Shown piece after piece: positions 4,537-35,121 of a stretch of 64,000 nt of DNA. Source of the DNA: an uncultured virus (IMG/VR IMGVR_UViG_3300047322_000261) (taxonomy: Duplodnaviria > Heunggongvirae > Uroviricota > Caudoviricetes); the IMG/VR virus record IMGVR_UViG_3300047322_000261. One strand, 5' to 3'. Each line of letters starts with the position of its first letter. Positions within the stretch are counted from its first letter, which is position 1. The notes beneath the pieces were generated by a model. That model was not told the DNA's origin. It searched no databases and saw only the letters and a program-made list of their open reading frames with translations. Position numbers and translations under genes: made by a program.

Positions 4537-5199
4537 ATGATTAACATAAAATTTACAGCAGACCCACTTCCTACAGACTTTAGCGGAACGCTTCAGGACT
4601 TCCAAGACAGGTTTTTGTTAAACCTAAGAGGTTCTATTGATGAAACTCAAGTCTTAACTGGTCAGATAGGTGGCCCACCACCAACACAAGACGTTGGGCC
4701 TTGGCTTAATGGAACTACGTGGCATATCTGGAATGGATCAGAGTATGTTCCGAGCATGGTCAAGATAGGTGGGGCGGGTTATGTTGTCCAACTAGGAGAC
4801 TATACTACCTCAGGTGATGGAGCTAGCCTACTTCCAGATAGATTCCAAACCCTTCAGGACAAAGACGGAACGGTAGCACTACTGTCAGATATTTACGCAG
4901 GTAGGCCGACTATCGTGCTGTCAGGAGCAACACCAACGATTGACTGGAGCCTTAGTAATAATTTCACGCAGGTATTACCAAGTAACATCACTGTTAGCAT
5001 GAAGAACTCTCAGCCCGGTCAGGAGGTTGTTGTTACACTTAAGAACAACGCAACTTCTTACACGGTAACATGGGCAGCAACACCAGCAATTTTCTGGCCT
5101 GCCGGAACACCACCTTCTCAAACAGCTAGCAAAACGGACATGTATATCCTTAAGAACATTGGTGGGTCAATCCTAGGAAGGCAGGTAGCTAACTACTAA
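4537..5199 (+). CDS. Putative tail/fibre-associated structural protein
   Basis: Paralogue of 3915..4535; C-terminus (W..GT.P..TA...D) resembles tail-fibre accessory domains. Confidence 0.55.
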   Translation: MINIKFTADPLPTDFSGTLQDFQDRFLLNLRGSIDETQVLTGQIGGPPPTQDVGPWLNGTTWHIWNGSEYVPSMVKIGGAGYVVQLGDYTTSGDGASLLPDRFQTLQDKDGTVALLSDIYAGRPTIVLSGATPTIDWSLSNNFTQVLPSNITVSMKNSQPGQEVVVTLKNNATSYTVTWAATPAIFWPAGTPPSQTASKTDMYILKNIGGSILGRQVANY

Positions 5200-5873
5200 T
5201 GAGTAGCATTACTGGAGGGGGAGCGCAACCACCACAGCAACCACCGTTTCACCCGATTAATATATTCGGTGGGCCTGATGCTCCACCACACTCAGGGCAA
5301 CAAGGAATAGCAGATAGAGCTTTAGGCCAAGACCTTAATAGGTATTTCAGTTATCAGTTTCCGGTATTTCCGGGGATGACCGACATACGCAATAACGAGA
5401 TACAAGACGCTTACAAGCAACTAACAGGGCCTTTATCATCCGACTTTCAAAACACTTTCCTTAAGAACGCAGCAGTAACATCACAAAGCGTAACTGGTGG
5501 CGGTAATCCATACTCAGGTATTGCTGGTGGGGCTGGATCATTTGTTCAGGGAAACGAAACAGCCTCGGTGGCTAGGCAAACCCTAGCTAAGCAGGACTAC
5601 GACAGAAGCAGATTTGAAGGATTGCTTCAGGCTAATCCGGTTCCGCAACTAGGATTGTCGCAGAACGACCTATTAAGCCTGAGTATCTACAACACAGGAG
5701 CGCAGAACGCATGGTCTATGAGTAACTATGCAAATCAGGTAGCTGGAGCTAATGCGTCTTTTGCCGCTCAACAGCAAGACTATAGCACTATAGGAAGCTT
5801 GATATCTGGCCTAGGAAGCGTCTACGCTAATTATCAAATTAACAATCCGTCAGGGCAATTTACAACAGGATGA
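5199..5873 (+). CDS. Putative internal virion/ejection protein
   Basis: G/Q/N/S-rich low-complexity composition with IGSLISGLG C-terminal segment; position after tail genes. Confidence 0.5.
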   Translation: MSSITGGGAQPPQQPPFHPINIFGGPDAPPHSGQQGIADRALGQDLNRYFSYQFPVFPGMTDIRNNEIQDAYKQLTGPLSSDFQNTFLKNAAVTSQSVTGGGNPYSGIAGGAGSFVQGNETASVARQTLAKQDYDRSRFEGLLQANPVPQLGLSQNDLLSLSIYNTGAQNAWSMSNYANQVAGANASFAAQQQDYSTIGSLISGLGSVYANYQINNPSGQFTTG

Positions 5874-6787
5874 ACTACAGCTTCATAACAGGATTACCTA
5901 GGTCGGGGTCAGCTTGGATAGCTAACTATCTTAGCTATGATAACGTGTGTTTTCTTCACGATGCATGGAAAGACAACACACCGTCAGAGCTTAAGGAACG
6001 TTTTCAGTCCTACCCTGGTTACGCAGCGGGAACGGCTGACCCCGCGAATGTCATGTTGTATGACAAAATTCAAAAAGAATTTCCTGACGCAAAGTGGGTT
6101 GTTATTACTAGGCCGGAAGCAGAAGTCCGAAAAGCTTGCCAAAATCTCAACATGCCGTTGTCAGACTTCACTGATAACTTCCAGAAATTGTCAAAAGAAA
6201 AAAAGCCACTCAAGATTCCTTTTTCTCAACTCTTTGACCGAGCAGATGAAATAGGTCGTTATGTTTACGAAGACTGGCAATGTCCTAGCTGGCGAACAGA
6301 CATGCTTAAGGGTCTTAACGTTCAGGTTCACTGGGGAAAGGTCTCGGAACAATTCAAGGTTCCAAGTAACATTAAGGAAGTAGCAGCCCTTACTCCTAAC
6401 AAAATGGCCTATATTGACCTAGTTAAAGAGATTTGTAACAACGACGCTAACACCGTTAGATTTTTATCTCAGGCTAGGACAGCATCGGAAGTATATCGAG
6501 CCTTAAACGAAGGAAAGCCAATAGACGTAGAAAAAACCAAAAATCTACTAGAGTCTATGGCTACAGAGTGGGTCATTAGTCCGTTCCTTAGAACCTTCGG
6601 AGCATCCATTGTTCCTGCTATTGTGTCAGCCTTAGAGAAATACAGGTCTGAGGAACTCAAGCATTGCCCTATTGATACAGAGCTTGTTACGGCTGTAACT
6701 TATATCTATCGTGGTAACGATGGAGTAAAAGAATACATGCCTAAGGTAAGAGAGCTAAGTGACAAAATTCTGAAGGAGAAGACGTAA
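5870..6787 (+). CDS. Sulfotransferase-like P-loop protein with helical C-terminal extension
   Basis: N-terminal FITGLPRSGSAW (5'-PSB loop-like) and FPDAKWVVITRP (3'-PB-like) motifs. Confidence 0.65.
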   Translation: MNYSFITGLPRSGSAWIANYLSYDNVCFLHDAWKDNTPSELKERFQSYPGYAAGTADPANVMLYDKIQKEFPDAKWVVITRPEAEVRKACQNLNMPLSDFTDNFQKLSKEKKPLKIPFSQLFDRADEIGRYVYEDWQCPSWRTDMLKGLNVQVHWGKVSEQFKVPSNIKEVAALTPNKMAYIDLVKEICNNDANTVRFLSQARTASEVYRALNEGKPIDVEKTKNLLESMATEWVISPFLRTFGASIVPAIVSALEKYRSEELKHCPIDTELVTAVTYIYRGNDGVKEYMPKVRELSDKILKEKT

Positions 6788-7684: not shown

Positions 7685-8296
7685 ATGCCATTCGCTAATC
7701 TCCCAGTATCAGGTTTTCAAGCACCGCAAGCACCAGATTGGACTAGGTTTGCCGCGCAAGCTAACGAGTTTATTGCCAATCAGCCTATTCCTAACACGGC
7801 GGCTATGGTTGACAAAGCTGTTGAGCAGATTAATGGTATCCTTAAACTGTCTTCTCCAGAGGAAAGACTTAAAAGACAACTAGAGATGCAACAGTTGGGA
7901 TTCATGCACGATGTTTACAGTGACTACAAACTACATCCCGAAAACTACGAGATGACCGCTCATGGGCCAGTTAAGATTGACGGTTTAACCAGAATAGCTA
8001 AGATAGCAGCTATTAACCACACGCTAGCATCTAACCAGTATCTCAATAAGAAAATTAACTCAGGTTTACCGCCCGGTCTATCGGAAGCAATACAAAAAGT
8101 AAAAGCAGCACAGGACGCAGAGAGGCAGGGTGTTCGTTTATCACCTAGTAATCTACCACCTACCGCTCCTGTCCAGTCAGCCCCAGCAACCGAAGCTTCA
8201 ACCGACAATTCAGATGATTCAGATACCGGAACACAGGCAGTAAACGATGAAGGCGGAGTTGGTAGCACAAACGCATTTGGCCCAAGAGATGTATGA
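7685..8296 (+). CDS. Putative internal virion protein
   Basis: Position within ejection cluster; no recognisable domain. Confidence 0.45.
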   Translation: MPFANLPVSGFQAPQAPDWTRFAAQANEFIANQPIPNTAAMVDKAVEQINGILKLSSPEERLKRQLEMQQLGFMHDVYSDYKLHPENYEMTAHGPVKIDGLTRIAKIAAINHTLASNQYLNKKINSGLPPGLSEAIQKVKAAQDAERQGVRLSPSNLPPTAPVQSAPATEASTDNSDDSDTGTQAVNDEGGVGSTNAFGPRDV

Positions 8297-9963
8297 GCGA
8301 CGAGAACACGAAAAACTACGATAACACAGACCTAAGCACCCCAGATGGAGCTACGCAGATTATAGGAGACGTAGCAACTTGGGGCGGAAGGGATGACTAC
8401 GTAAGTGGTCAGGATTCCGGCGAAACTGCCTCTGGTGTCAAGACCTACGACCCAAAGACAGACACAGAGCCAACCACGAGTGGTATAGCTATAGACCCTG
8501 CTTGGCTTAAGAAACACGGTGGGGTAGTCAACTACGGAGACCTAGTAGATGTTATTAACCCAGAGACGGGAGCAAGTAAGAGGATTCCCATAATTGATGC
8601 AGGGCCAAATAGGAGACTAGGCAGGCTAGCGGATATTAGACCGCAAGACGCTAAGGATATTGGCCTTAGTGGAGTAGGAAGGGCTATTATCGACTTTAAG
8701 CCTGCTATCCAAGGATATAGCGCAGGCAGCACTGACAACCAAGACCAACAAGACCCTAACGCTCCACAAACGGGACTAGAGGACTTAACCACGCCGGAGG
8801 GAGCGCAGTCTTACTTAGCTCGCGCAACGGCCAACCCGGCGTCCCAGACAGCCGCTACGGGGTCTTTATCCGGCTCCCGCACCGATATAACGGGAACAAA
8901 GGAAGACCTAGGTGTTACAAAGCTTCCTGACGGTGGATACGATATAGGAAACGGTTACGTTGGATACCCTAACGGCATCATACAACTAAGAACGGGTAAT
9001 TCTACTACAGAATTTATACCAGACCCCACGGCAGACTCAGGTTACAAAACCCATACCTTTCAAGTTACGCCCAAGAAAGCAGACTCACTAGATGATGTAG
9101 CAGCTAAAGAGGCAGCTAAAAAGGGCATCCTTAGGTCTAACTACCCAGAAGGCGAAGAAGGCGATCAACAATACAAAGACGAACTTAAGCTTACCTTGGG
9201 AGCGGGAGTGGCTGACGACATTGCAGAAGCTATTGTTAGCGGCAAACAACCACCAGACACCAAGGGTCTCTACAGAACAGGCCCACAGGTTAGGGCCAAG
9301 CTAGCCAAGCTAGGATACGATCTTAAGGATGCTAACCTAGACTGGCAGGCATCTCAGCGGTTCATTTTGTCACAGAACTCTCCACCACTGGTAAGATTAA
9401 GGCAGTCAGCTATGACAGCCGATCATTCCCTTGATGTTATCGACGACCTATCTAAACAGTGGCAGGCGGGTAGGTTTCCGGCACTTAACAAAGCTAGACT
9501 AGCAGCCGCACAACAGGGAGCATTTGGGCAGCAGGCAGCTTCTCTAGCTAGACAACTAGATGGTCAGATTAACGATCTTACCTTTGAGCTAGGAAACGTC
9601 TATATGGGTGGCGGAACTCCTACCGATCAGGCTTTGGTTCTAGCTAAGAAAAACCTTTCTGCGGATTGGGACGATAAGACCTTGCGGGACATGACTAATC
9701 TCGCCAGACGAAATCTTCAAATCAGGCTAAATTCATTCAAGCAGGTAGAGCCAGCAGGGTTAAGCGAGGAAGCTGCCAAGGAAGACAGATGGACTAAGAC
9801 GCACGCAGATGTTGCACCAACTCCCGCCGTAGCTCCTAGCACAGCACCGCAGGTATCTAAATCACCTTCTAGCTATAGTGTAGGACAGAGTGTTAAATTA
9901 AACGGTAAGATGGTTACTATAGATTCTATAGACCCAACAACAGGGAGTTTTACCTATCACTAA
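8293..9963 (+). CDS. Ejection protein with N-terminal RlpA/DPBB-like (lytic transglycosylase-type) domain
   Basis: ETASG...GIAID...YGDLVDVINPETG...IPIIDAGP...GRLADI matches the double-psi beta-barrel pattern; helical C-terminal half. Confidence 0.6.
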   Translation: MSDENTKNYDNTDLSTPDGATQIIGDVATWGGRDDYVSGQDSGETASGVKTYDPKTDTEPTTSGIAIDPAWLKKHGGVVNYGDLVDVINPETGASKRIPIIDAGPNRRLGRLADIRPQDAKDIGLSGVGRAIIDFKPAIQGYSAGSTDNQDQQDPNAPQTGLEDLTTPEGAQSYLARATANPASQTAATGSLSGSRTDITGTKEDLGVTKLPDGGYDIGNGYVGYPNGIIQLRTGNSTTEFIPDPTADSGYKTHTFQVTPKKADSLDDVAAKEAAKKGILRSNYPEGEEGDQQYKDELKLTLGAGVADDIAEAIVSGKQPPDTKGLYRTGPQVRAKLAKLGYDLKDANLDWQASQRFILSQNSPPLVRLRQSAMTADHSLDVIDDLSKQWQAGRFPALNKARLAAAQQGAFGQQAASLARQLDGQINDLTFELGNVYMGGGTPTDQALVLAKKNLSADWDDKTLRDMTNLARRNLQIRLNSFKQVEPAGLSEEAAKEDRWTKTHADVAPTPAVAPSTAPQVSKSPSSYSVGQSVKLNGKMVTIDSIDPTTGSFTYH

Positions 9964-12900
9964 TGCCTACAGCCAATCTCGCGGATATTGAGCAGGATAA
10001 CACACCACCGCCCTATCTAGCTGGCCCACAAGACCAGCCACAACAGCAGCCAGCAGACCCAAGTATACCGCCATTACTGGCTAGGCCCGAAACTCCAGCT
10101 AACTCAGCTAGTCTTGATGACGCTACTATTGACCATGACACTCTACAGGCTGACGCTACCAACAACCTAGCTAAGTATAACGCTGGAGACCCTTCGATCA
10201 ACGATCATGACGCAGGAATGTTCAAGGGTATCGCCAAGGCCGCTACCGACTACAAAACTGCGCTCAATAACGAAATAACCGCTGCCGATAACACGCCCGG
10301 ATGGTTACGGGCAGGCAGGGATTTAATTGGTGGGGTTAAGACCTTAGCAGGCAAGGCATCTAATTTCTTAAGCTTGGGTGGCAAGCCGGAAGACTGGGCT
10401 GAGTTTGGCGATGTTCCAAAAAGCACGCAAGACCTAAAAGAAGCAGCTACTGGAGCGGCAGAAATAGCTCAAGGTGTGGTAACTGGCGTTGGCAAGATGC
10501 CAGCGGTAGCCGCTAATCTTGTTGCTGGTCTTAACGAGCTTACGCCCTATCAGGCACTTAGAGAAACTATTCCCGGCCCTTGGCAAGACGAGGCACAAAA
10601 ACAAGCTGCCGAAAGCAGAGCGGTTGGAGATGTATTAGAACACTACGCTAACACAGGAGCTAGTGATATCAGCAGAATCACTGGCGTAAGCCACGATACA
10701 GCCAAGGCAATGATAGGCGAGAACGTAGCCTACATGTTGTTAGGCCCAATGGGAATGGAGGGAACGGCAGAAGGTGTGGCGAACGGTGTTCGTAATGCAA
10801 CTAACGCAGTTGGTAACGTAACTGGTGGATTAAAGTGGGCAGCAGCCAAGGCAGCACCTACGGCGGTAGGACTAGCTAAGGCAGCTACGGTAGACGTAGC
10901 ACTTAGGAAGGTGGGACTAGTTGGAGGAATGAATGAGCTTGTGTCCACACTTGCCGGATTCGGGGGAAGGTCAGGAGCTAAGAACCCAGAGATAGCCAAC
11001 AAGGTAGTTCAATTATTCAGCGACAAGACCCTGCCAGAGATAACGGAAGCTGCCGCACAGCAAGCCACTAAGCCGTTAGGATTAAGTAAGAACCAGTTTT
11101 TCGCAGACGCTCTTAAACAAAAAGCTGGAACACTACAGGAAGCTATAGATGCAGACTTGGCCGACATGGATTCCACTAGCGCAAGGCGAGCTACAGACCT
11201 AGCCTCAGATGGTTCCTATAAGCATCCTTATGAAGACCTAGACAAAGAAGGCCAATCCCTAAGAGATAAAAAACAGCAGGTTCAAGACCTTCAAAATAAA
11301 GCACAGGGCATACTTGCTAGAAACGACTTTCAAAAACTATACGATTCCGCCATTCAGGGATTTGGTAACTTCATGGCTCATACCGCGCAAGGCGCAGCTA
11401 TAGGTGCTGGTTTCGCCGGAGCTAACGCTCCAACAGGAGATACGTCAAACGCTGTAGCTTCAGGACTAGCTATAGGTGGAATACTAGGTGCTGGTGCTGC
11501 TCCGTTTGCTTCATTGTCAGGAACCAGAGCGTTAAGAATTTCCGATGCGGCTAAAGACTTAAAGAATTGGTCAATTAAGAACAACGCTGTAGCTGGCGAC
11601 ATGAGTGACCTTAGTGCCGGACAAAAGCGCACCGCTTACTCCGTAGCTGGCATGGTAAATAAACTAGGTGGTAATAAGGTCTACTTACATCCAGAAGACG
11701 AAATGGTGGCATGGGGTGGTCAGGCCCCTGACTCGCAACCCGGAAGCGGATTCGTTGACTCCCAAGGTAACATACACCTTAACAAAGCCGATTTACCAAG
11801 TGGAGTTGCTGGACACGAATACACTCACTTTACTCAGCAGTTTCAGGGTTTGCTAGGAGAAATGCTAAGCAAGGCTTCTCCAGACAGAATGGCCGACTTT
11901 GAAAAACAGTATCAAGACGCCTTAGCTACCACAGGAAAAACTAGGTTTAACTCTAGGAAAGAACGAGACGCTGAGGTAGGTAGACTTGTATTGCAACACA
12001 CACCTATCGAGTTGTTTTACGGTGGAGAGACTGGTGCTGATGTTCTTGGAAGAATGTGGGATGGTATGATGGGTCAGGGTAAGACAAAGTTTATCAACGG
12101 TTTTAATGCCCCTTATACTCGCGCCGACATTCTGGCTATGAAGCAACGCTTCTATAAAGCTGGCGAGCTAGCCAAGATGACTGACGGTCAAATTCCAAGA
12201 GATGCTAAGCCACCAGAGGTTTCATTCACGGACTTCACTGATGCACAGGCAGAGAAATTTCATAGAGCGGTAGAATTTAACCAACAGCAAGGCATGAGTC
12301 CCGATGCAGCATTTAAGGATGTTGCTGATAACATAGAGTTCATGCCTAAACCTAGGCCCGGTCAAACAAAAGAAGAAGCACTAGACGAAGCTTGGGAACG
12401 TTACTACGCTCAAGTCCAAGAACAAAACGCCAAAAGAGAACCACAAGAACAAGACTTTAACACCAGACCACCTAAGCCTAAATGGTATGACCCTACGTCT
12501 TTTGTTGACGACGCTAGGATGCGTAGTTTGCTACCATCAGAGCAGCGTCCCAAGCTGGAACCCTACGTTCCGAAACCAAAACCATTTGAGAGAACCTATG
12601 GCTGGATGAGTCCAGAAGGTAAGTATATTGAGAACAAATCGGGAAACATCCACGCTAACACTATAGCAAAAGAACTTAACGGGCAAGATAGCTTCCGTCG
12701 GTGGAGGGAGAATGTAATACATAAAGGCGGAGACGAAACTATCAAGAACCACCCATATATAGATGCTATGGAATGGGCGTATCGCAAAGGATGGGAGAAG
12801 GGCTACGTTAGGCTGCTTAACTCAGGCAAGACCCTTTACGCCAATATAGGAAAAGATTTTGTTATTAGCCCAGAAATGAAAGACCACCTTATCAAACGCG

Positions 12901-15900
12901 CCGAAGAAAGTGGTGCTGATAGGGTGATGGTAGATCGTGACTTCAGTAAGACAGAAAAGCTATGGGATAACCCAGACTACGCAGGAAATAAGGCAGGCTC
13001 AGCTTACTTCGGTGAGAGGCCAGAACCAACCCACCGCAGGCTAGCTAGGTTGCTAAACTGGCACAGAGACCAAGACGTTCTAACTCCGCACGTGGGTCAG
13101 CCAGCAAAAAGGGCTACGATTCCACCTGAGTTTCGTGCTGTAGATCGTGATGAATTTCACGGAACAGTCCATGAAACGGTAAAAGCCGCAACAGGCAGGC
13201 TAGCGGATGCGATTACAGGTCGCGGCGTGAATGAAGTGCGAACCTTCACGGAACACCTACGGCGGCAAGGCAAACCAGTTAAGAAGGTGTCAGACATGAC
13301 CCCTGAGGAAATCAGGGCAGAACTAGCTGCTAGGGATGCATGGAACGCCAGAGAGGGCTGGAGAGGTAAGCCTGCTCAAGCACCAGAACAACGAGCAGAA
13401 TCTTACATGCCTAGGAAGCCCGGACAGTCTAAGCAAGACGCAGCACAGGAAGCTTGGGAGCGTTACTATAACGTAGTCCAGCAACAGAATCAAGCGGCTG
13501 AAGCAGGTCAAAAGATGCCTAGCCCCCTAGCAATAACACGAAGACAGAAAAAACTAGAACGAGCTACAGAGGCAGAACGGGTAGCGGCAGAGGCACAGCG
13601 CATAAAAGACCGAGCCGAAGCTGTAGCTAGGGTTAAAGCTAAAGCTAAGGACAGCGGCAAACCTCAACCAGTTTACGGTTGGCTAAAGCCAGACAATAGC
13701 TTCCTAGAGAACAAATCTAGCGACATACATGCCGATACAATATCCAAAGAACTTAATCCAGACTACAAATACGACCAATGGGATCATAAAGACGAACAAG
13801 GTAGATACACTGATGGTGACTATACGTCGATTTACGGTAGCATGCGCGGAGCTTATGAAGCTGGATGGGACAAGGGATACATTAGACTAAGAAACTCATA
13901 CGACACCTTGTATGCCCATCTTCCTGTTAAATATGGGCCGATTCCAGAGAGCAAGGTAAATGTATTAAAGGAACTGGCTCTTGAAAACAACATGAATGAG
14001 ATTATTCATGACAATGGAACCAGTAATTCGTATACCATGTGGTCAAATCCTAACCCGGTTAAAGATACTTCTGATTACATGCCCAGAATTAAATCTCCAG
14101 CTATTCAGGATAAAAAAACTGGTAAGATATACCTAGGAGAAAACCATGCAGTAGCTTACAATGACTATCTTCGGGCAACGCCGGACGACAAAGTAGTATC
14201 ATCTGGCAGGTTTGTTCCTCACTGGGATAACCCTAGAACCAAGGAAGGGTTTATTGACACCGATGGTAACTTTCACGACAGAGCTAATGCTTGGCAAATG
14301 GCTGCTGACGCTGGACAGTTAACACCATCTAGCGTTAGCAGGAAAACTAAGACATTGTTTTCAGAAGACCTAATGCCTAGGCTTACCAAGCGACAGATGG
14401 AAGCACAGGACAAAGCTACTAGAGATTACGACTTTATTCAGGCGCAGAATATGGCTAGGGACGAAGAAAAGAAAATGCCCACCAAGTTGTCTTATGTAAG
14501 GCGCAAAAATAGACTAGAGCGAGCCGATCAAGCAGAAAGAGACGCAGAAAATCAGCGTGCCGAGCAAGCTAGATTAGATGCATTATCTAGGCGGCGGTTT
14601 GGACAAGGCAACGACAGGCCAAGAGAAGTTTATGGCTGGCTAAGTCCAAAAGGTGAGTTCCATAAAAACAAAGGTGGCGATATTCACGCAGATACTATTT
14701 CTAGGCTGCTAGACCCCCAAGGATATGAAGATAGCGAAGGTAGCTACCATGATATGTATGGCGGTATGACACAGGCCTATATGGAAGGATGGAGAAACAA
14801 ATACCTTCGTCTTACTTCATTAGGCCGACAGATGTATGTCCACTATCCGGCGGAATACGGAGACATTCCCAAGTCACAACTAGGAGAGCTAGAGAAAATT
14901 GCAATGGAACACAATATGGATGTTGTGTTACGAGATACAGAAGATGGGCCAGAAAAAGTTTTATGGCAGTCTCCTGAGTTTGGCACGAGGGATGATGGTC
15001 TAACTTCTGAGTATGAGTTCATGCCTAAGGCCAGACAGATGAACGACGAGAACTTCAAAGAGCCGTTCTATGTAGAGAAACACGGTGGGGTTTATGCCGT
15101 TGTTGATCGCCGGAAACCTAGCTCTGTAGGGTTTATCAGTCCTGACTTAAAAGAGGCACAGCACAGGGCATACTGGGCTAACGAAACAGAGAGACCTAAG
15201 ACTAGCGCAAGCGGGTTATGGGATTCTACGTTCGTCGAAGGAGAGGGCGCGGCTGAACGGAAGCAGGTAGCCAAGCAATTAGGAGTCCAAGAAGACAAAC
15301 ATTACTGGGAACAGAAGCCGGAAGCTAGAGCCAAGATTAAAGACTACTACACTAAGCAGGGTGCTGACTTTATGCCAAGACCAACACCGCTACAGGTAGC
15401 CGAGGGTGTTCACCGCGAGCTTAAGAAATCAGCAGAAGAATTTATAGGCGCAAGTCCATACGCTAGGAAGTTTCTGGACAACGACAAAGACGGTATGGGT
15501 AGATACTATCTCATGCATGCTCTGGTAGACTCGGTTAAGGGCAAGCCTCAGGGTATTGATTTACAAGAGATACATAAGTCGTTAGGCATGACACCTACAG
15601 AGGTAGAGGTATTCGCGGATGGGTTTAGACAAACGGTTAACCCTGCCGAGATAGAACACAGGATTAACATAGGATCGCTGCCAGCAGCACCATATCCCTA
15701 TGACATGAATCCTAAGTTTGAAGCTCAGATGCGCGACACGGCAGACCAGACACCAGAAGACACTGCTGGCGAAGAATGGAAATCAGGCAACCCGCCACCC
15801 GGTTGGAATCCAAGGGAAGGTGGCAGCGGTTTCTGGCCTAGGGAGTTTATGCCTAGGATTAGGGCTGCTGCTGTCAGGGACAATGATACCGGAAATGTTT

Positions 15901-18900
15901 TTGAAGGACGTAACCATATTCAAGCCGAGACTGCTTGGCAGGCTGGAGACGGTAAAAATCACGACTACTTCAGGAGACTACCTAACATAGATCAGGGTTT
16001 TGTTACAGACGAAGGAAGGTTCGTTAGCAGGCAAGATGGGGCACCAATAGCTAAGGCTTCTGGACAACTAAAGAACAACCAATGGCGAAGCTTATACGAC
16101 AAGAACCCATCAATGCAGTTAATCTCAGAAGACGTTAACTTCATGCCTAGGATGGGTGTCCCGGTTAACGAAGAAAAATGGAGGGAAATGTTCTCTCGAT
16201 CTAATGCTCATGGATACCCTAAACCTATAGTTTCGGCAGCTATACTAGACCTTAAAGACGGAACCAAGTGGGTTGGTAAAGATCATGTTGAAGCCTACAC
16301 AAGTTGGGGGGCGGGACAAGACCACACTAAGCCATTAAATAACTCAACATTACTAGACGGATTTATTGACACTAACGGTGACTTCCTTAACAGGAAACAG
16401 GCAGGAGTTAGGGTTGGAGAAACCGGACAAATGGGGCCAGAGGCCTCTAGGATTCTAGCTCAAACAGGACTAGACTCACAGACGTTTGAGGGTCTTAGAA
16501 GCTACATGCCTAGGTCTAAAGAAACAGACCTTGCTGAACACGCTGCGAAATTATCAGATGGTAAGATTATCACAGGTTCTAGCCAAGGCGAAGTTTATGG
16601 CAAACTAAGGAACCAAGGCCTAGACCCTGATAGCATAGAAACAGGGTTTGTTGACGGAAGCGGAAAGTTCTTAAACACCGGAGAAGCATACCATCAGGCT
16701 ATAACATCTGGACAGGGTGCTATGTCATTCATGCCTAGGGTTGATAAACAGTGGGAGAAGGAGCGGTGGCTTACCAGAAAGAACATAGCTATGCTAATGG
16801 GCTGGCCTAGGGAAGATGGTCTTAAGAAATTCGCGGAGTTATCACCAAATCAACAAAAGCAGATAGCCGGATATTACGGGCCTAAGCCCGGAACCAGAGA
16901 AGACACATTCTTCATGCCGAAGCCGGACGATAAAAGAGCTATCAAGGAAGCAGCAATCCAATATCCAGATGGAACCATATACGCAGGAACCAATCATGCT
17001 AGCGCAATTATTAACTCAGAAAATAAAGTGGGAGAGTTTAAGGTAGGGTTTGTTACTAACGACAGGAAGTTTTTAGATAGAAAGCAAGCTATGGACAGGG
17101 CTGTAGAGATTGGCCAGATTTCCAAGGCAGCGGCAGACACCGAGTTAAATCGGCAAATTAGAATGGGTATTAGCGAACCAAGCAGGGGTCTTGAGTCATG
17201 GATGTTTAACCTAGACAGAAATTTCATGCCCAAAGCTCCCGCTGCATGGAAAGTAAAAGATTGGGAAGATAACGGTAAACCTAAGTCTCTTATTGTGGCT
17301 CCAGCTACATCAACAATTTACGACACAGGGTTAAACGAACACAGGGATGTTAGGGCTGCTATTAGAGACTCTGGAGTAACCGGAAGCCTAGTTAGGGCTG
17401 TTGTTAATGACCGAGACAACAAATTGAACGTAGAGCCTTATTCTGCATCAGGAGAAGTCTCGGCGTCTGACATGAAAAACCTGAACGATCTAGCTACCGA
17501 GATGGGGCTAGATGGTGCAGTTAACACAGAGTTTAAGAGAGCGGGTGGGCCTTCTAGGATTCAGCAGGCTAGGAGCTATGCCTATATGCCACCTATCCGC
17601 AAGGCAGAAGCTCGCGGTAACTCACGAGAAGTAAGTCAGGAAGAATACGATCACCTAGCAGCCTCAGGTGCTACACAGCTTAACCAGCTTAGGCAAGACA
17701 CCCAGTCAACGGAAGGCATGAAACAGAACTGGAACGACATGCTTAACCAAGTCTACGCAGAGACTAGGAAGCCGTGGGGTGGTGCTACCATTAATCCTGC
17801 TACTGGAAGGGATATCAAACTAACATCAGGTAGGGACGTTGGGCCTTTTGCTATGTCGGTTAAGGATGAAGGTCAGGAGACCATTAGTGTTCCCATTGAT
17901 GCTTCGCAGCGCGAATTTAATGATGCCATGTTAAAGGCTAGGCATGCCTTTCCACAGCTTAACGGTAAAGACCACTATCTAGGGGTGTTCCGCGACGACG
18001 ACAAGGGCACTATAGATATAGACCCTGTGTTAGTGGTAGATACTCCATCGCAGGTTGAAAGGATAGGTGCTTATACTCATGCTTCTGGTGGAGCGTATGA
18101 CTACGCTACTGGTAACGGTTACTTCCCGCCGCACCTAGACTACATGCCTAGAAGTAGAGCTGACCTGAGAAAGTTTCAGGAAGAAATGGCACAGAATTAT
18201 CCAGAAGCTATTAAGCCTACCTTCCAGAAAGACAAAGAAGGTAACTTCAAGGTAGACAAAGACACTGGTGAGTTTGTTCCAGAAGAAAGGGAGTATAACC
18301 TAGACAAAACCCCCTTATACAAACTAGCAACTCAAGGTATTAAAGACCCGCTAGAGAAAGACAAAGCTTATGTCAAGGCCTTAGCTCAAAAGATAGCTAA
18401 CGAATATAAGCAGAATTGGAAAAACGATCCGCTAGCTATGACAGCTAAGGGATGGTATACGGACTTGTTTAAGTTGATTTCAGACAAACTAGGAAAAGAC
18501 AACGCTGAGTTATTCGCTCAGTTACTTTCCACAACAAGTCCCGGTAACTTTGCCTCTAACAACTTTAGGTTCGCGCTAGAGGCTATGAATGGATACCTTA
18601 GTGGGAGATACGATAACATCCTTAAGGCGTTTAAGGAAGCTCACGATGCTTTTGTTAGGGGTGATCTAAAAGACGCTAGCGGTAATCCGATTACCAAGGT
18701 TGGTCAGTTCAATAAATACATAAGAGATAACAACATCTTGGCGTTACAAGCTAGCGGAAAGAAACTCGGAAAATATAGCCTAGGAGCAACGTATGTCCTA
18801 GCCGGACATTTCTGGAACAAGGCAATGGGGAAAAAGGTTACAGCCTTTGTTAAGAACATCAGCGGTGTAGACCTAGATAATCCAACTATTGATACTTGGG

Positions 18901-19262
18901 CAGCTAGAACGGCTCATAGGTTGTCTAACGAGGGCATGACCGATAAGCCTTGGAGAAACCTTCCAATGAACGAATCTGCTATAGGTGACAGAGATTTCGA
19001 CCTAGCGCAAGCCGCCTACAAGGAAGCAGCCAATATGACAGGAGTTAAACCAACAGACTTACAAGCTATAGCTTGGTTTGGCGAGAAACTTCACTATGGA
19101 AAGAGCGGTTGGATCAACTCTGGCCCCGGAGCCGAGCTAGGAGACTTTAGACCATTCCTAAAGGCGGCTACACCTAAAGGAAGCCTAGGGGAACTAGAGA
19201 TACCAAGTGGATTAAAGCTTCCAAGAGCAACACTAAGCAAACCAAAATGGCTAAACCAATAA
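9963..19262 (+). CDS. Giant (3099 aa) internal virion polyvalent-type protein: HEXXH metallopeptidase, 14 MP[RK]-delimited modules, C-terminal HhH-glycosylase-like domain
   Basis: HEYTH at 11814-11828; repeated [FYL]MP[RKP] junctions; internally repeated domains; C-terminal GWY...LLSTTSP...TIDTWAAR...LQAIAW pattern. Confidence 0.75.
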   Translation: MPTANLADIEQDNTPPPYLAGPQDQPQQQPADPSIPPLLARPETPANSASLDDATIDHDTLQADATNNLAKYNAGDPSINDHDAGMFKGIAKAATDYKTALNNEITAADNTPGWLRAGRDLIGGVKTLAGKASNFLSLGGKPEDWAEFGDVPKSTQDLKEAATGAAEIAQGVVTGVGKMPAVAANLVAGLNELTPYQALRETIPGPWQDEAQKQAAESRAVGDVLEHYANTGASDISRITGVSHDTAKAMIGENVAYMLLGPMGMEGTAEGVANGVRNATNAVGNVTGGLKWAAAKAAPTAVGLAKAATVDVALRKVGLVGGMNELVSTLAGFGGRSGAKNPEIANKVVQLFSDKTLPEITEAAAQQATKPLGLSKNQFFADALKQKAGTLQEAIDADLADMDSTSARRATDLASDGSYKHPYEDLDKEGQSLRDKKQQVQDLQNKAQGILARNDFQKLYDSAIQGFGNFMAHTAQGAAIGAGFAGANAPTGDTSNAVASGLAIGGILGAGAAPFASLSGTRALRISDAAKDLKNWSIKNNAVAGDMSDLSAGQKRTAYSVAGMVNKLGGNKVYLHPEDEMVAWGGQAPDSQPGSGFVDSQGNIHLNKADLPSGVAGHEYTHFTQQFQGLLGEMLSKASPDRMADFEKQYQDALATTGKTRFNSRKERDAEVGRLVLQHTPIELFYGGETGADVLGRMWDGMMGQGKTKFINGFNAPYTRADILAMKQRFYKAGELAKMTDGQIPRDAKPPEVSFTDFTDAQAEKFHRAVEFNQQQGMSPDAAFKDVADNIEFMPKPRPGQTKEEALDEAWERYYAQVQEQNAKREPQEQDFNTRPPKPKWYDPTSFVDDARMRSLLPSEQRPKLEPYVPKPKPFERTYGWMSPEGKYIENKSGNIHANTIAKELNGQDSFRRWRENVIHKGGDETIKNHPYIDAMEWAYRKGWEKGYVRLLNSGKTLYANIGKDFVISPEMKDHLIKRAEESGADRVMVDRDFSKTEKLWDNPDYAGNKAGSAYFGERPEPTHRRLARLLNWHRDQDVLTPHVGQPAKRATIPPEFRAVDRDEFHGTVHETVKAATGRLADAITGRGVNEVRTFTEHLRRQGKPVKKVSDMTPEEIRAELAARDAWNAREGWRGKPAQAPEQRAESYMPRKPGQSKQDAAQEAWERYYNVVQQQNQAAEAGQKMPSPLAITRRQKKLERATEAERVAAEAQRIKDRAEAVARVKAKAKDSGKPQPVYGWLKPDNSFLENKSSDIHADTISKELNPDYKYDQWDHKDEQGRYTDGDYTSIYGSMRGAYEAGWDKGYIRLRNSYDTLYAHLPVKYGPIPESKVNVLKELALENNMNEIIHDNGTSNSYTMWSNPNPVKDTSDYMPRIKSPAIQDKKTGKIYLGENHAVAYNDYLRATPDDKVVSSGRFVPHWDNPRTKEGFIDTDGNFHDRANAWQMAADAGQLTPSSVSRKTKTLFSEDLMPRLTKRQMEAQDKATRDYDFIQAQNMARDEEKKMPTKLSYVRRKNRLERADQAERDAENQRAEQARLDALSRRRFGQGNDRPREVYGWLSPKGEFHKNKGGDIHADTISRLLDPQGYEDSEGSYHDMYGGMTQAYMEGWRNKYLRLTSLGRQMYVHYPAEYGDIPKSQLGELEKIAMEHNMDVVLRDTEDGPEKVLWQSPEFGTRDDGLTSEYEFMPKARQMNDENFKEPFYVEKHGGVYAVVDRRKPSSVGFISPDLKEAQHRAYWANETERPKTSASGLWDSTFVEGEGAAERKQVAKQLGVQEDKHYWEQKPEARAKIKDYYTKQGADFMPRPTPLQVAEGVHRELKKSAEEFIGASPYARKFLDNDKDGMGRYYLMHALVDSVKGKPQGIDLQEIHKSLGMTPTEVEVFADGFRQTVNPAEIEHRINIGSLPAAPYPYDMNPKFEAQMRDTADQTPEDTAGEEWKSGNPPPGWNPREGGSGFWPREFMPRIRAAAVRDNDTGNVFEGRNHIQAETAWQAGDGKNHDYFRRLPNIDQGFVTDEGRFVSRQDGAPIAKASGQLKNNQWRSLYDKNPSMQLISEDVNFMPRMGVPVNEEKWREMFSRSNAHGYPKPIVSAAILDLKDGTKWVGKDHVEAYTSWGAGQDHTKPLNNSTLLDGFIDTNGDFLNRKQAGVRVGETGQMGPEASRILAQTGLDSQTFEGLRSYMPRSKETDLAEHAAKLSDGKIITGSSQGEVYGKLRNQGLDPDSIETGFVDGSGKFLNTGEAYHQAITSGQGAMSFMPRVDKQWEKERWLTRKNIAMLMGWPREDGLKKFAELSPNQQKQIAGYYGPKPGTREDTFFMPKPDDKRAIKEAAIQYPDGTIYAGTNHASAIINSENKVGEFKVGFVTNDRKFLDRKQAMDRAVEIGQISKAAADTELNRQIRMGISEPSRGLESWMFNLDRNFMPKAPAAWKVKDWEDNGKPKSLIVAPATSTIYDTGLNEHRDVRAAIRDSGVTGSLVRAVVNDRDNKLNVEPYSASGEVSASDMKNLNDLATEMGLDGAVNTEFKRAGGPSRIQQARSYAYMPPIRKAEARGNSREVSQEEYDHLAASGATQLNQLRQDTQSTEGMKQNWNDMLNQVYAETRKPWGGATINPATGRDIKLTSGRDVGPFAMSVKDEGQETISVPIDASQREFNDAMLKARHAFPQLNGKDHYLGVFRDDDKGTIDIDPVLVVDTPSQVERIGAYTHASGGAYDYATGNGYFPPHLDYMPRSRADLRKFQEEMAQNYPEAIKPTFQKDKEGNFKVDKDTGEFVPEEREYNLDKTPLYKLATQGIKDPLEKDKAYVKALAQKIANEYKQNWKNDPLAMTAKGWYTDLFKLISDKLGKDNAELFAQLLSTTSPGNFASNNFRFALEAMNGYLSGRYDNILKAFKEAHDAFVRGDLKDASGNPITKVGQFNKYIRDNNILALQASGKKLGKYSLGATYVLAGHFWNKAMGKKVTAFVKNISGVDLDNPTIDTWAARTAHRLSNEGMTDKPWRNLPMNESAIGDRDFDLAQAAYKEAANMTGVKPTDLQAIAWFGEKLHYGKSGWINSGPGAELGDFRPFLKAATPKGSLGELEIPSGLKLPRATLSKPKWLNQ

Positions 19263-21766: not shown

Positions 21767-21845
21767 CGTGGGGTGGACAAGTCTGGTTTAAGTCGTCGGT
21801 CTCATAAGCCGAAGATCGCGGGTTCAAATCCCGCCCCCGCAACCA
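21767..21845 (+). tRNA. tRNA-Met(CAT), initiator type, with U31-G39 anticodon-stem variant
   Basis: C1xA72 mismatch, GAC/GTC D-stem, anticodon loop CTCATAA (CAT at 21803-05), GCGGG-TTCAAAT-CCCGC T-arm, encoded CCA. Confidence 0.93.
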
Positions 21846-21950: not shown

Positions 21951-22021
21951 AGGCACACGCTAACCGAGAAGCTGTCGGTGAACGGCTGCATGGTTTATAC
22001 TTTAGTGTGTGCCTTTCTTTT
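21951..22021 (+). terminator. Long stem-loop with U-tract (terminator or small structured RNA)
   Basis: AGGCACACGCTAA/TTAGTGTGTGCCT 13-bp stem enclosing GCTGT-CGGTGA-ACGGC, followed by TTCTTTT. Confidence 0.5.
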
Positions 22022-22582
22022 ATGTCTAACATTTTTATCACATCTGACCCGCATTTCGGTCACGCTAACATTCTGACCTTCAAGCGACAAGATGGAAGTC
22101 CATGCAGGGAGTTTGATTCCGTAGAGCAGATGGACGAAACCATCATTGAGCGATTCAATGCAGTCGTTAGGCCACAGGACAAGGTTTACATCTTGGGAGA
22201 TATTGCCATGAAGCGGAAGTTTATAGCTACCGCTGGCAGGCTTAATGGTCACAAGCGTTTGGTGCGAGGCAATCACGATATCTTTAGGACTAGGGATTAC
22301 CTTCCGTTCTTTGAGGAAATCTACGCTTACAGGAAGATCGAGAATCTTTTCTTTAGCCACATTCCGCTGCACCCTGAAAGCCTGAGATACGATTGGATTA
22401 ATGTGCATGGTCACGTTCACAACAACGTTCCAGAATTAAATTTCGGGCCTAGGTATCTGAATGTTAGCACCGAAGTAACAAACTACACTCCGCTAGCTAT
22501 CGAGGAAGTCAGGCAGATCGTGCGAGCTAGGTTTACAGAGGAACAACTACAACAATTAAGAGAGGGTTACAAAGGAAGATGA
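22022..22582 (+). CDS. Calcineurin-like metallophosphoesterase
   Basis: SDPHFGH, LGD, GNHD, SHIP and HGHVH motifs; ATG at 22022. Confidence 0.9.
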   Translation: MSNIFITSDPHFGHANILTFKRQDGSPCREFDSVEQMDETIIERFNAVVRPQDKVYILGDIAMKRKFIATAGRLNGHKRLVRGNHDIFRTRDYLPFFEEIYAYRKIENLFFSHIPLHPESLRYDWINVHGHVHNNVPELNFGPRYLNVSTEVTNYTPLAIEEVRQIVRARFTEEQLQQLREGYKGR

Positions 22583-23333: not shown

Positions 23334-24080
23334 ACCTAGAAATCCACCCAGTAGCTCTAGCTAAGCTAGGGCTACTTAGCAGGCAGCAGGCTAGAAGGCT
23401 TCTAATGCTAGGCGGATGGTTTAACGCACTAGAAATGGAAGAATTACTTATCGAGGCAGGCTGTATAGACAGCCATGAGTGCTGGACGCCCTACAGGACG
23501 CTATCTAGCTCGCCGTGGTTAGTATACGAGGAAACAACACAATGACGAAGGCAATCTGGAGCGAGCGCATGACAACTAAACAACTAGCACAGCTAGAAGC
23601 TATAGCCACCACCATTAAGACCAGCGAGCTATGTAAACGTGTAACAAACATAGAGAACAACCTGCTGGAGTTAACTAAGCTGGTTAAGATCATAGCATTA
23701 AACCAAACCCGCCGCGAGGCACGACGATACATACCAGAAGGATTTTAATGAAAGTCGGAACCGTATGAGACCAATCCCTAACACCTTAACAATCGGTCAT
23801 CCTCACGTATGGCCTAAGCTAGCCCCTAGGCTGGCGAAATACCTAGAACCTAAACTTGGTAAACCTTATGTTACAACTTCAAGATCGGAACGAGCCACAC
23901 GCAGTCCCTCACACTCTAGTCCTACAGCGGCTAGATGAGTGCCTGTTAAACCTTAAGATTCACCGGAACGACTATCCGGCTGAGTTACTTCCTGTATACT
24001 GGGATGCCTTGAGCTATACCAGAACACTAAGGGAGAGAATGGCAGAAAACTTGGGAGAACCTAGGAGCGGTGGGGTATGA
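23330..24080 (+). CDS. Run of three or four small hypothetical ORFs (about 23330..23545, 23542..23748, 23856..24080)
   Basis: Mostly ATGA-coupled short ORFs; no recognisable domains. Confidence 0.45.
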
Positions 24081-24505
24081 AGATAAAACAATTCAGTGGC
24101 AAGTATCGGTTCCTGTCTAACTTTAAGCCTGTAGAAGTAGAGCTAAATGGGATTCATTATGCGTCTGTGGAACACGGTTATCAAGCACTTAAGGCTACCA
24201 ACGTAGAAGATCATAACATGGTAGCCAGCCAACCAACCGCAGGACTAGCTAAGAAAGCTGGCAGGTCTATTAAGGTAAGACCAGACTGGGACAGCATAAA
24301 ACTTTCCGTGATGGAGAAGCTAGTAAGGTCTAAATTCCGATGGTCTGTTATGGCTGATATGCTATTAGACACTGGAACCGCTGAGTTAATCGAGGGCAAT
24401 AACTGGAATGATACGTATTGGGGTGTATGCCGAGGGGTTGGCGAAAACCACCTTGGAAAGATTCTAATGAAAGTCAGAAGACTTCTATACCTAGGAGAGT
24501 TATGA
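24077..24505 (+). CDS. NADAR (YbiA-like) family protein
   Basis: FLSNF...SVEHGYQA.K...AKKAGR...RPDWD...KF...LLDTG..ELIEGN.WND.YWG...GENHLGKILM. Confidence 0.92.
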   Translation: MKIKQFSGKYRFLSNFKPVEVELNGIHYASVEHGYQALKATNVEDHNMVASQPTAGLAKKAGRSIKVRPDWDSIKLSVMEKLVRSKFRWSVMADMLLDTGTAELIEGNNWNDTYWGVCRGVGENHLGKILMKVRRLLYLGEL

Positions 24506-33077: not shown

Positions 33078-34265
33078 CTAGCACGCAGGAGCATTGTGCC
33101 GATTGTTCAGCAACGGCATCGCTATGATTTTGCCGCTCGGCTGAGTAATTGAAGCAATGATTGGCTTCTCTCCTGCCTTTGTTTTACTAAGGTCACGAAA
33201 CTCTCTCGCCTTCGCTTCCTGTTGTTTCAGCCAGAACGCAACGTGCCTCTCTTGCTCTGTCTCTGGCGCAAACTCAAGATCACCCTCTAGCTCGGCCAGT
33301 GTTCGCGCTTCGCCAGCAGCAGCGATTTCTTCATCTGTTGGCTCGCGTTCTGAATCGTCTGCGGTGTAGCTGCCAGTAAACGCCGCGTTAAAGGCCGCGT
33401 CTGCCGCTTCGTTCTCGTCTTCATCGGTAAGAACACGTGGAGTGCCAGTTGTAATCCAGCGGTTGTTGCAGTCGTAGTAGCCCTGCGGCTCGTAGTCACG
33501 CACCTTAACCCAATCACCAACATAATCATAGTAACCGATGCTGCGATGAAGGGACGAATACACTGGGTTGGACGCTGTGCCAAAGCCGCGATAGGTTGGG
33601 CTAGCTAGGCTATTCCACATGTTACTAACAGAGCCTTGTGCGCCTTTCCAAGCACGTTTGATTGGGCCGTAGGCGTAACCTGAGTTACTATACCAAACAC
33701 CCTTATTCCACGTTCCCTTTTGCTCATTGAATAACCAGACCTTGCCGTTGACGTTCATTAAGGCGATCTTGTTATAGCCGATAGCTTCACCGACTACCTT
33801 GCCGAATCCCTCATGCCCAAACGGAACCATTTCCAGTAAAGGCTCTAGCAGCTTAGCAAACTGTTTTGAATCAGATTCGTTTTTGTCATCCTTGTGAAGT
33901 GAGCTAGGCAGTATACCATTGTGAACCAACGCATACTTGCCATTGCTAACGTCAAACGGGTGGCAGTTGTCAGCATTAACAACTCCGTGAGTAGCTATCC
34001 TGAAATGTAACAAGGCAGCATACTTTTGTAGGCCTTGATAGGCTTTCCAGAAGTCGTCGAAGCTAAAGAATCCTTTGTGAATCTCGATCTTACCATCCTT
34101 AGCGATAGCAAAACCAGCACCCTCTTTGTTGTTAGCGTAACAGTTTTGAAGGTATTTCCTTGCGATATTGACGCCTTTTGGTTTCCATACCGCGATACAA
34201 CCTAGCATGGGAAGCAACTGCCAACAGGTGCTAACCCAGTCTATGATTTGAATTAAGTGTGTCAT
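33078..34265 (-). CDS. Class II (Ntn) glutamine amidotransferase with a 22-aa N-terminal leader
   Basis: CIAVWKP...N.EGAG...HFRIATHG...NCHPF...HNG...SDS...WYSN. Confidence 0.88.
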   Translation of the reverse strand: MTHLIQIIDWVSTCWQLLPMLGCIAVWKPKGVNIARKYLQNCYANNKEGAGFAIAKDGKIEIHKGFFSFDDFWKAYQGLQKYAALLHFRIATHGVVNADNCHPFDVSNGKYALVHNGILPSSLHKDDKNESDSKQFAKLLEPLLEMVPFGHEGFGKVVGEAIGYNKIALMNVNGKVWLFNEQKGTWNKGVWYSNSGYAYGPIKRAWKGAQGSVSNMWNSLASPTYRGFGTASNPVYSSLHRSIGYYDYVGDWVKVRDYEPQGYYDCNNRWITTGTPRVLTDEDENEAADAAFNAAFTGSYTADDSEREPTDEEIAAAGEARTLAELEGDLEFAPETEQERHVAFWLKQQEAKAREFRDLSKTKAGEKPIIASITQPSGKIIAMPLLNNRHNAPAC

Positions 34266-34275
34266 GTTTTTCTTT

Positions 34276-35121
34276 CTAGTTAATTACCGCTGGATGAATG
34301 TAGTCCATATACGTTCTTCCGTGAACATCATTAAACGGTTCTTTACCATTCTCGATGATATAATCAAAGGCCTTAGCTGTGCAGGACTGCCTGTATGGTG
34401 ATGTTTGGCTAGGTGCTGAGTTAGCCTCTAGGACGTATGGATTACCGTTTGCGTCTACCATAACATCGACACCGCAGAAGTCTGCCCCGCCAACCTTAGC
34501 AGCTTTAATGGCAGCTTTGATTACCTTAATGGGCCAAAGATTCCATCGAACGTTGGCAAACTTTCCACCACGAGCAACGTTCCAAGCTACTTCATCTGGA
34601 TTAGCCGGTGTCTTGCTAGCTACCCATACTACCCGATTCTGGCATACGAACACTCGATACTCAGCTACCTTGGCAACCTTAACAGCTATGTAACCGTCGC
34701 CAAAGTTATCCAGTAACCAATGCTTACAGGCCGAAAAACTACCTACAAACAGGTTCCTTCCCTGTGAGTGAGTAGGTGGCCTAGCTATCCAGTGGTTGTT
34801 ACGATACTCATGCGGAACAGTGTCACCGCAAACTAGAGTGAATGGAACGGGAACACCAGCAGCTTGCATATCTAGCCTGCTCTGTTTTTTGTTCCCGCAC
34901 CAGTGTATAGCCTTAGCTGCGTTAACAACCTTGGCATGGATAGGAATGTTGGAAGTGCAACCCCATCTAAATACTAATGGTGTATCGTCATCGGTGGTTA
35001 CACTCTCCCAGTCACCCCTAATCCAGTTTCTAACCTGAGCTATCTGCTTTGTAGCAGCAGCTATGATTCCGTCTGCGCTTGCCTTACCAAGTGCGCGTCG
35101 TCTAAAGATAATTGCTTTCAT
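34276..35121 (-). CDS. ATP-grasp ligase (RimK-like)
   Basis: NKKQS...EYRVFV...DFCGVDV...YVLEANSAP. Confidence 0.88.
   Translation of the reverse strand: MKAIIFRRRALGKASADGIIAAATKQIAQVRNWIRGDWESVTTDDDTPLVFRWGCTSNIPIHAKVVNAAKAIHWCGNKKQSRLDMQAAGVPVPFTLVCGDTVPHEYRNNHWIARPPTHSQGRNLFVGSFSACKHWLLDNFGDGYIAVKVAKVAEYRVFVCQNRVVWVASKTPANPDEVAWNVARGGKFANVRWNLWPIKVIKAAIKAAKVGGADFCGVDVMVDANGNPYVLEANSAPSQTSPYRQSCTAKAFDYIIENGKEPFNDVHGRTYMDYIHPAVIN

Follow-up and report, generated by a model that had tools for sequence, protein, structure and literature searches.

The subject of this report is P0001, a giant polyvalent-type protein encoded in a stretch of 64,000 nucleotides (nt) from an uncultured virus of the Caudoviricetes (IMG/VR record IMGVR_UViG_3300047322_000261); this whole stretch is referred to below as the window. 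The window comprises most of the genome of an uncultured soil phage. Among its genes are those for a terminase-like protein, a primase/helicase, the exonuclease subunit of a DNA polymerase and a tail-fibre-like protein that contains Laminin_G_3 and CHB_HEX_C_1 domains; the gene of the last forms one same-strand block with that of P0001. The start of the P0001 open reading frame (ORF) shares 1 base with the stop of the preceding ORF 8293-9963 (556 amino acids, aa). DUF7178, inside the last module (aa 2728-3099), is the sole Pfam domain recognised in P0001; the PHROGs matches are to two families of unknown function, and no effector or enzyme domain was recognised in the Pfam and PHROGs scans. 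A precomputed PF26092 label on P0001-P0003 and on the shorter relative P0037 was not reproduced by the Pfam scans. The N-terminal core, which has a Gly/Ala-rich hydrophobic run at aa 497-521, carries a zincin-like domain with a HExxH motif, and downstream of it a short peptide with the core aromatic-Met-Pro recurs at the borders of a series of modules. Here we describe these features and their conservation in related proteins, together with the reading that we tentatively favour, in which the peptide would be a processing site cut by the embedded zincin.

Junction peptides and module borders

A regular-expression scan of the translation of P0001 found exactly 14 in-frame [FYL]-M-P-[RKP] sites (Table 1), each at the ATG and with the tetrapeptide listed in the first-pass annotation, whereas 0.117 sites are expected from composition; when the residues were shuffled 20,000 times, the number of sites averaged 0.114 and never exceeded 3. 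All 14 are located downstream of HEYTH (aa 618), which is the only HExxH of P0001, and aa 1-792 are free of them, as had been claimed. The core of the junction in this protein is [DESN]-[FY]-M-P-[RK]. Met-Pro dipeptides occur 18 times in total, namely at the 14 sites, in the starting MPT and in three K-M-P strings (aa 179, 1185 and 1505) that lack the aromatic residue. The latter two, of the form K-M-P-[ST] (nt 13515 and 14475), occupy equivalent internal positions in two of the three modules of one paralogous type (A-type); they account for extra Met-Pro dipeptides and are not junctions.

Table 1. Coordinates in the window of P0001, its domains, the junction sites and a possible further site (AF2, AlphaFold2; pLDDT, predicted local distance difference test)
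Feature	Position	Strand	Junction ATG	Basis or remark
Giant polyvalent-type protein P0001	9963..19262	+		3099 aa, translation
N-terminal core, aa 1-793	9963..12341	+		common to 26 representative proteins; zero junction sites
Zincin-like domain, aa ~519-745	11517..12197	+		AF2 block-mean pLDDT mostly above 85, dip to 76 in one block
HEYTH, aa 618-622	11814..11828	+		helix 136-146 of model
Tyr650 and ERDAEVGR block (aa 667-674)	11901..11984	+		alignment; helix 185-200 of model
Junction 1, FMPK, aa 793-796	12339..12350	+	12342	12-residue coil between helices (AF2)
Junction 2, YMPR	13404..13415	+	13407	regular expression
Junction 3, YMPR	14076..14087	+	14079	regular expression
Junction 4, LMPR	14370..14381	+	14373	regular expression; only site with Leu for the aromatic residue
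Junction 5, FMPK	15018..15029	+	15021	regular expression
Junction 6, FMPR	15369..15380	+	15372	regular expression
Junction 7, FMPR	15846..15857	+	15849	Met-Pro in coil, two residues before first strand of next module (AF2)
Junction 8, FMPR	16140..16151	+	16143	coil, pLDDT below 50 (AF2)
Junction 9, YMPR	16503..16514	+	16506	coil, pLDDT below 50 (AF2)
Junction 10, FMPR	16728..16739	+	16731	coil, pLDDT below 50 (AF2)
Junction 11, FMPK	16911..16922	+	16914	coil, pLDDT below 50 (AF2)
Junction 12, FMPK	17223..17234	+	17226	regular expression
Junction 13, YMPP	17583..17594	+	17586	low-depth contig match of run X3 ends exactly at the ATG
Junction 14, YMPR, ahead of C-terminal DUF7178 module	18141..18152	+	18144	regular expression
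DUF7178 (PF23802) match, aa 2954-3038	18822..19076	+		Pfam
Possible 15th site, YMPK, aa 289 of the 305-aa ORF 5870-6787	6734..6745	+		looser-pattern scan

Cuts at the 14 sites would divide the chain into an N-terminal core of 793 aa and 14 modules, 61-372 aa in length, the size range already given in the first-pass annotation. These modules fall into eight types without mutual BLAST relation: three paralogues of the A-type (aa 794-1148, 1149-1372 and 1471-1686), five paralogues of a small type (aa 1373-1470, 1963-2060, 2061-2181, 2182-2256 and 2318-2421) and six singletons. A peptide that stands ahead of eight unrelated module types is not accounted for by duplication alone. The earlier description of the pieces as about 14 effectors holds for their number but less so for their nature, as only DUF7178 was recognised and eight of the 14 belong to two sets of paralogues, each representing a small domain of unknown function. 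A structure search of five modules yielded a best Z of 3.3, too low to assign a function (several weak matches to helix-turn-helix structures at aa ~2255-2310 serve as leads only), and the A-type module had no usable hit in the ESM Atlas. A search for free-standing forms with the 98-aa module as query had zero matches among proteins of 53-172 aa.

The placement of the sites at module borders, proposed on the basis of the repeats in P0001, is supported by three kinds of evidence. Regarding 15 proteins with Pfam matches, the Pfam envelopes make up 11.1% of the residues and contain none of the 85 [FYW]MP sites (P about 4e-5, assuming uniform placement), while the two of 27 [FYW]LP strings that fall inside an envelope look like chance. 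The sites bracket ART-PolyVal, GNAT, methyltransferase, WYL_2, Pyr_redox_2 and DUF7178 domains, often within 10-20 residues. Regarding P0001 and its relatives P0002 and P0003, the BLAST alignments typically have their first residue 1-3 positions ahead of a site and their last one 3 positions beyond a site, and entire modules between sites are present in one protein and absent from another. Finally, all six junctions that were modelled with AF2 are in predicted coil and none is inside a folded unit, in agreement with the expectation that the motifs are inter-domain linkers. The first model (aa 480-860, 30-sequence alignment) has a mean pLDDT of 77.8. The second (aa 1950-2330, mean pLDDT 63.9) contains three beta-beta-alpha-beta-beta-alpha units and a small helical unit with pLDDT 70-89, between which four of the junctions lie; at junction 7 the Phe ends a 3-residue helical turn.

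Conservation of the peptide and of its flanks

A word-indexed full-length search with P0001 yielded 12 other large proteins, and a phmmer scan with aa 1-793 over 1.84 billion representatives yielded 26. The counts below refer to a family of 30 proteins with H[ED]xxH at residues 400-760, which are mostly below 50% identical to P0001. The closest relatives have 10 (P0002), 10 (P0003) and 6 (P0004) sites of the strict pattern, and nearly the whole N-terminal family has the pattern [FYW][ML]P, with aromatic-Met-Pro as its core; the core of the motif is thus wider than first described and recurs in most relatives that share the HExxH region. Downstream of the H[ED]xxH domain there are 128 [FYW]MP sites in the 30 proteins, against 5.2 expected, and upstream of it there are 2, against 1.9 expected; at least three sites are found in 19 of the 30. 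Three lineages (P0006, P0007 and P0009) have Phe-Leu-Pro in place of Phe-Met-Pro. Five giants that share only the DUF7178 module and not the N-terminal family (P0008 and P0010-P0013) have zero sites. The modules of the relatives include ART-PolyVal, GNAT and methyltransferase domains.

Changes at the sites conserve the residue class (Phe, Tyr or Trp; Met or Leu) and all four Pro codons are in use (CCT 9, CCC 2, CCA 2 and CCG 1 at the 14 sites), and the constraint is therefore on the protein, as had been suggested. The variation of the Pro codon, on which that suggestion was partly based, is real but uneven, since CCT is enriched at junctions (9 of 14 here and 9 of 11 in L001, the locus of a related phage described below, compared with 28% at all remaining Pro positions of the ORF). 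Arg at junctions is always encoded by AGR (9/9, background 67%). Most of this codon bias is due to an excess of the palindrome CCTAGG throughout the window, which occurs 47 times against 17.7 +/- 3.9 in dinucleotide-preserving shuffles (2.7-fold), with only 6 of the 47 at junctions. Such an excess is unusual for a phage; in the giant ORF, Leu is most often encoded by CTA and Arg by AGG.

The codon usage bears on a role at the DNA level, put forward earlier as an alternative, in which T[TA]Y-ATG-CC(T) microhomologies promote the gain, loss and exchange of cassettes and the peptide is a by-product. Besides the low-degeneracy codons and the enrichment of CCT, such a role would account for the breaks of the P0001-P0003 alignments at the sites and for the presence or absence of modules as wholes. 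It would also fit the collinearity of the genes around the giant gene with those of L001 (46-83% identity), the giant gene itself differing module by module, and the contig match that ends at the ATG of junction 13. But the motif is kept in relatives that are 25-35% identical, where similarity of the DNA needs selection on the protein, and its changes are class-conserving; the CCT-AGG bias reflects the window-wide excess just described, and viable breakpoints fall between domains under any mechanism. In addition, the contigs of the four metagenome runs compared, which are of low depth, contain no joints (module deletions) or indels. We therefore regard exchange at the DNA level as the main cause of the motif as unlikely, and as a rather poor explanation of the peptide as a whole.

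Internal translation starts, the other alternative raised in the first-pass annotation, have lost further ground. The ATGs might be internal or fossil starts, the modules being either separate translation products or descendants of separate genes; Met predominates at its position in the site, the polyprotein itself starts with MPT, and the relative P0037 (1043 aa) has a junction Met as its first residue (MPK...) and ends 5 residues after another F-M-P. The conserved aromatic residue, however, precedes the Met, so that selection acts across the would-be start; Leu takes the place of Met in three lineages, and the sole Leu junction for which the DNA sequence is at hand, the Tyr-Leu-Pro junction in L001, has CTG where the window has ATG. 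Pairing of the 14 junction ATGs with a generic anti-Shine-Dalgarno 9-mer was no stronger than that of the 69 other in-frame ATGs (P 0.45), in a test of low power in which even true starts barely differ from other in-frame ATGs (P 0.057). P0037, the only hit of a search for shorter relatives, is either a naturally split polyprotein or an artefact of gene calling or assembly. As the main cause of the motif internal starts are also unlikely, and of all the explanations considered we give this one the least credence.

The residues flanking the sites are alike within a protein and unlike between lineages. In the clade of the window (P0001-P0004), position -1 is basic at 0/46 sites and position +3 is basic at 41/46. 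In P0026, position -1 is basic at 6/11, +3 is acidic at 9/11 and +4 is Gly at 8/11 sites, while +4 is Thr at 7/7 sites of P0020 and +3 is a small residue at 8/9 sites of P0028. This is the pattern that would be expected if one reader recognised all sites of a protein, although gene conversion among the junctions could also produce uniform flanks. The residues after the site are Pro, Thr, Ser or charged, typical of exposed linkers.

A peptide of this kind may also be left uncut and serve as a hinge or a cap at the beginning of every module, or as a repeated docking peptide for packing or threading the chain, in which case its partner would be the capsid interior, the portal, a chaperone or the zincin-like domain. 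The position of the sites in linkers is compatible with this, as is junction 7, where Met-Pro stands two residues ahead of the module's first strand; uncut delivery is described for some polyvalent proteins (PMC5512222), and relatives with HDxxH in place of HExxH retain the sites. A purely structural cap would, on the other hand, not be expected on at least eight unrelated module folds, nor would it be expected to shift its flanks in concert by lineage, and the residues that follow the site suggest an exposed linker rather than a packed element. We rate this explanation as unlikely on balance, but as the most serious of the alternatives.

The zincin-like domain and processing of the chain

The predicted structure of the zincin-like domain consists of short strands, followed by the HExxH helix and then by helices with a conserved Tyr and Glu. 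In the aligned relatives (30 sequences), His618 and His622 are invariant, position 619 is Glu in 28 and Asp in two, Tyr650 is invariant, and Glu667 and Glu671 are near-invariant; from the alignment, Tyr650 is a candidate for the oxyanion Tyr, and Glu667 and Glu671 are candidates for the third zinc ligand. A structural search of the model against representatives with VIA-align had as its top three matches PPEP-2 (6fpc; Z 7.0, root-mean-square deviation 4.3, 141 residues aligned), PPEP-3 (9g0j; Z 6.8) and anthrax lethal factor (1yqy; Z 6.7), with alignments of 141-162 residues, other zincins being ranked lower. Scores in the ESM Atlas for the zincin region were below 0.9 ('minor capsid protein'; a LPD5/LPD1/MuF_C cluster) and provide leads only.

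We tentatively favour the reading in which aromatic-Met-Pro is a processing site cut by the embedded zincin; it is plausible, if short of probable, on the comparative and modelling evidence. P0001 would then be a polyvalent-type polyprotein with a core of ~790 aa that includes the zincin-like domain, followed by 14 cassette-like modules, each preceded by a presumably exposed linker that holds the peptide. Cutting at these peptides would separate the modules from one another, and the most probable enzyme is the zincin of the chain itself, which may act in cis or between copies, either in the head or after ejection. The protein may travel with the DNA; the evidence for its packaging and injection, proposed in the first-pass annotation, is the gene context, i.e. 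the block with the tail-fibre-like gene. Not only the enzyme, the scissile bond and the timing but also the cutting itself are points that we infer from aligned sequences and predicted structures. Autoprocessing of polyvalent proteins by zincins was predicted by Iyer et al. 2017 (PMC5512222).

Several points weigh against this reading. The support for cleavage is all comparative or predicted. The fold match is middling, since a best Z of 7-8 is, according to the search tool itself, what models that lack a true counterpart usually reach as well. Foldseek with the zincin-like model returned nothing at E <= 0.001 (many of its weak top rows are zincins), a profile search of the PDB sequences with the zincin-like region returned nothing at E <= 10, and hmmscan of aa 480-793 at E <= 10 matched no Pfam peptidase family, MPTase-PolyVal included. 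The second AF2 model was built from a 6-sequence alignment only, which makes the low confidence of its linkers weak evidence of flexibility. Fewer than three sites are present in 11 of the 30 family members. Zincins of this type are also carried by the virion RNA polymerase of phage N4, ArdC and TraC1, which are delivered uncut (PMC5512222). Finally, P0007 and P0009 have HDxxH and yet keep 6 F-L-P sites each, which implies that Asp suffices, that another enzyme reads the site, or that the site is uncut. The earlier claim was of self-cleavage by the HExxH domain; the predicted fold of this domain is zincin-like, and the two HDxxH relatives among the 30 speak against strict self-cleavage.

The HDxxH relatives are likewise in favour of an explanation in which the sites are cut by another protease, of the phage (head maturation) or of the host, and the HExxH domain is employed elsewhere, e.g. 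in the cleavage of cell-wall or host proteins. A scan of all six frames of the window for a less strict form of the pattern yielded 17 hits in open frames of at least 80 aa, i.e. the 14 junctions, a YMPK in ORF 5870-6787 and two hits in short, probably non-genic frames. This YMPK is 17 residues from the C-terminus, where the L001 orthologue (4557-5465) has FMPR in a well conserved tail; the ORF itself has weak hydrolase/sulfotransferase-like hits. A conserved [FY]MP[KR] in this place fits the action of a protease in trans. Against another protease, no head protease was recognised in the 36 larger ORFs by Pfam or in 28 by PHROGs, many ORFs being matchless, and the motif tracks the N-terminal family, being absent from the five other DUF7178 giants, although these belong to different phages, whose proteases would differ as well. 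We consider cutting by another enzyme quite improbable, less so than the explanations based on DNA exchange or on internal starts.

A broader version of the favoured reading is doubtful when taken as a whole. In this version, aromatic-Met-Pro would be the cleavage code of an undescribed family of zincins, similar to PPEP and lethal factor, in the cargo giants of phages, and every linker of the chain would be cut beside Met-Pro after delivery so that the small modules are supplied in fixed stoichiometry. Flanks that have shifted with the protease in each lineage would constitute natural orthogonal protease-site pairs, and the same low-degeneracy codons would act as splice points for module swaps from one phage to another.

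Polyvalent proteins have been predicted to be cut by zincins since 2017, and the present family gives exact sites (14 in P0001 and 128 across the 30 relatives) and a candidate enzyme with defined residues (E619, H618, H622, Y650 and E671). Should the cutting be confirmed, it would reveal how numerous small proteins are delivered by a phage as a single packaged chain, it would establish cleavage next to Met-Pro as a new specificity of zincins, and the lineage-specific protease-site pairs would be of practical use. If the chain is uncut, a docking or hinge peptide repeated on unrelated modules still needs explaining.

Genomic setting and comparison with known systems

Regarding a set of 50,697 phage records, megablast of the giant ORF and tblastn of aa 1-812 gave zero matches, and no near relative of the whole window was found among them. 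With P0028 and P0020 as tblastn queries, matches in these records were limited to single modules in other phages; the DUF7178 module has a weak match to one phage that is filed under two accessions. Scans of IMG/VR found no relative, and a metagenome scan found two loci of one relative, including L001. The DNA of the window is present full-length in one rhizosphere metagenome run, possibly its source, and as small pieces in three soil or rhizosphere runs, and no RNA run is listed as containing it; the comparison used the contigs of these four DNA runs, of low depth, and runs X2-X4 contribute short, low-depth pieces only. A 35-base stretch (13216-13250) matches contigs in all four runs, where both contig flanks are unrelated GC-rich sequence; this is probably a chance match or a conserved short match to another organism.

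Three adjoining genes at 33078-36107 (-) match the GATase-like, RimK/ATP-grasp and Amidoligase_2 families and look like a peptide-ligase or modification cassette. The only tRNA in the window (21767-21845, +) has the anticodon CAT and is of the Met or possibly the Ile2 type. A calcineurin-like phosphoesterase (22007-22582, +) and a protein with a NADAR domain (24077-24505, +) are encoded downstream of the giant gene. NADAR domains are linked to ADP-ribose metabolism, and this neighbour may be related to the ART-PolyVal modules of the relatives.

P0001 combines many unrelated domains (eight module types in 3099 aa) in one phage polypeptide, which is what characterises polyvalent proteins; together with the HExxH region, this supports its earlier assignment to the zincin-bearing phage polyvalent proteins. 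Like these (PMC5512222), it is a giant multi-module phage protein with an embedded HExxH domain, and its relatives share with them ART-PolyVal, GNAT, methyltransferase and other enzyme domains. It differs from them in that no Pfam family, not even MPTase-PolyVal, has a match to the HExxH region at E <= 10, and in that a defined, family-wide junction peptide marks the presumed sites. The main text of PMC5512222 names no cleavage motif; the word 'linker' is absent from it and 'cleavage site' occurs only in a reference. A search of the literature on phage polyvalent proteins and DUF7178, including the main text of PMC5512222, found no named junction or cleavage motif.

The model of the zincin-like domain has the same order of strands, HExxH helix, Tyr helix and Glu helix as PPEP-1, PPEP-2, PPEP-3 and anthrax lethal factor, whereas sequence similarity is not detectable (no homology to the M34/Pro-Pro endopeptidase family in the profile search of the PDB sequences or in Pfam at E <= 10) and Z is only middling. 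In PPEP-3, HExxH is followed by the catalytic Tyr190 and then by the zinc-binding Glu197, and substrates are gripped via X-Pro kinks (PMC12828418). The invariant Pro of the junctions is reminiscent of the X-Pro kink in PPEP substrates, but the spacing from Tyr to Glu is 21 residues here and 7 in PPEP-3. Pro-Pro, the type of PPEP substrates with Pro at both P1 and P1', is present at one of the 14 junctions (YMPP), the others having a single Pro.

Two other zincin-bearing proteins of virion cargo, DdrB of phage P1, which is processed, and the virion RNA polymerase of phage N4, which is packaged uncut (PMC5512222), illustrate that either outcome is possible for such cargo. The main text of that source reports no junction motif for them. 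No homology of P0001 to either of them was detected here.

With regard to the organisation of the chain, there is a parallel with other viruses. Polyproteins of eukaryotic RNA viruses consist of a single chain with an embedded protease and a short junction consensus that co-varies with the virus lineage. The analogy between them and polyvalent proteins was drawn in PMC5512222. The protease classes are unrelated, and the present case concerns a DNA phage in which cleavage is predicted; the recurrence in P0001 of one peptide at the module junctions, in what the models suggest are exposed linkers, is a trait of viral self-processing polyproteins.

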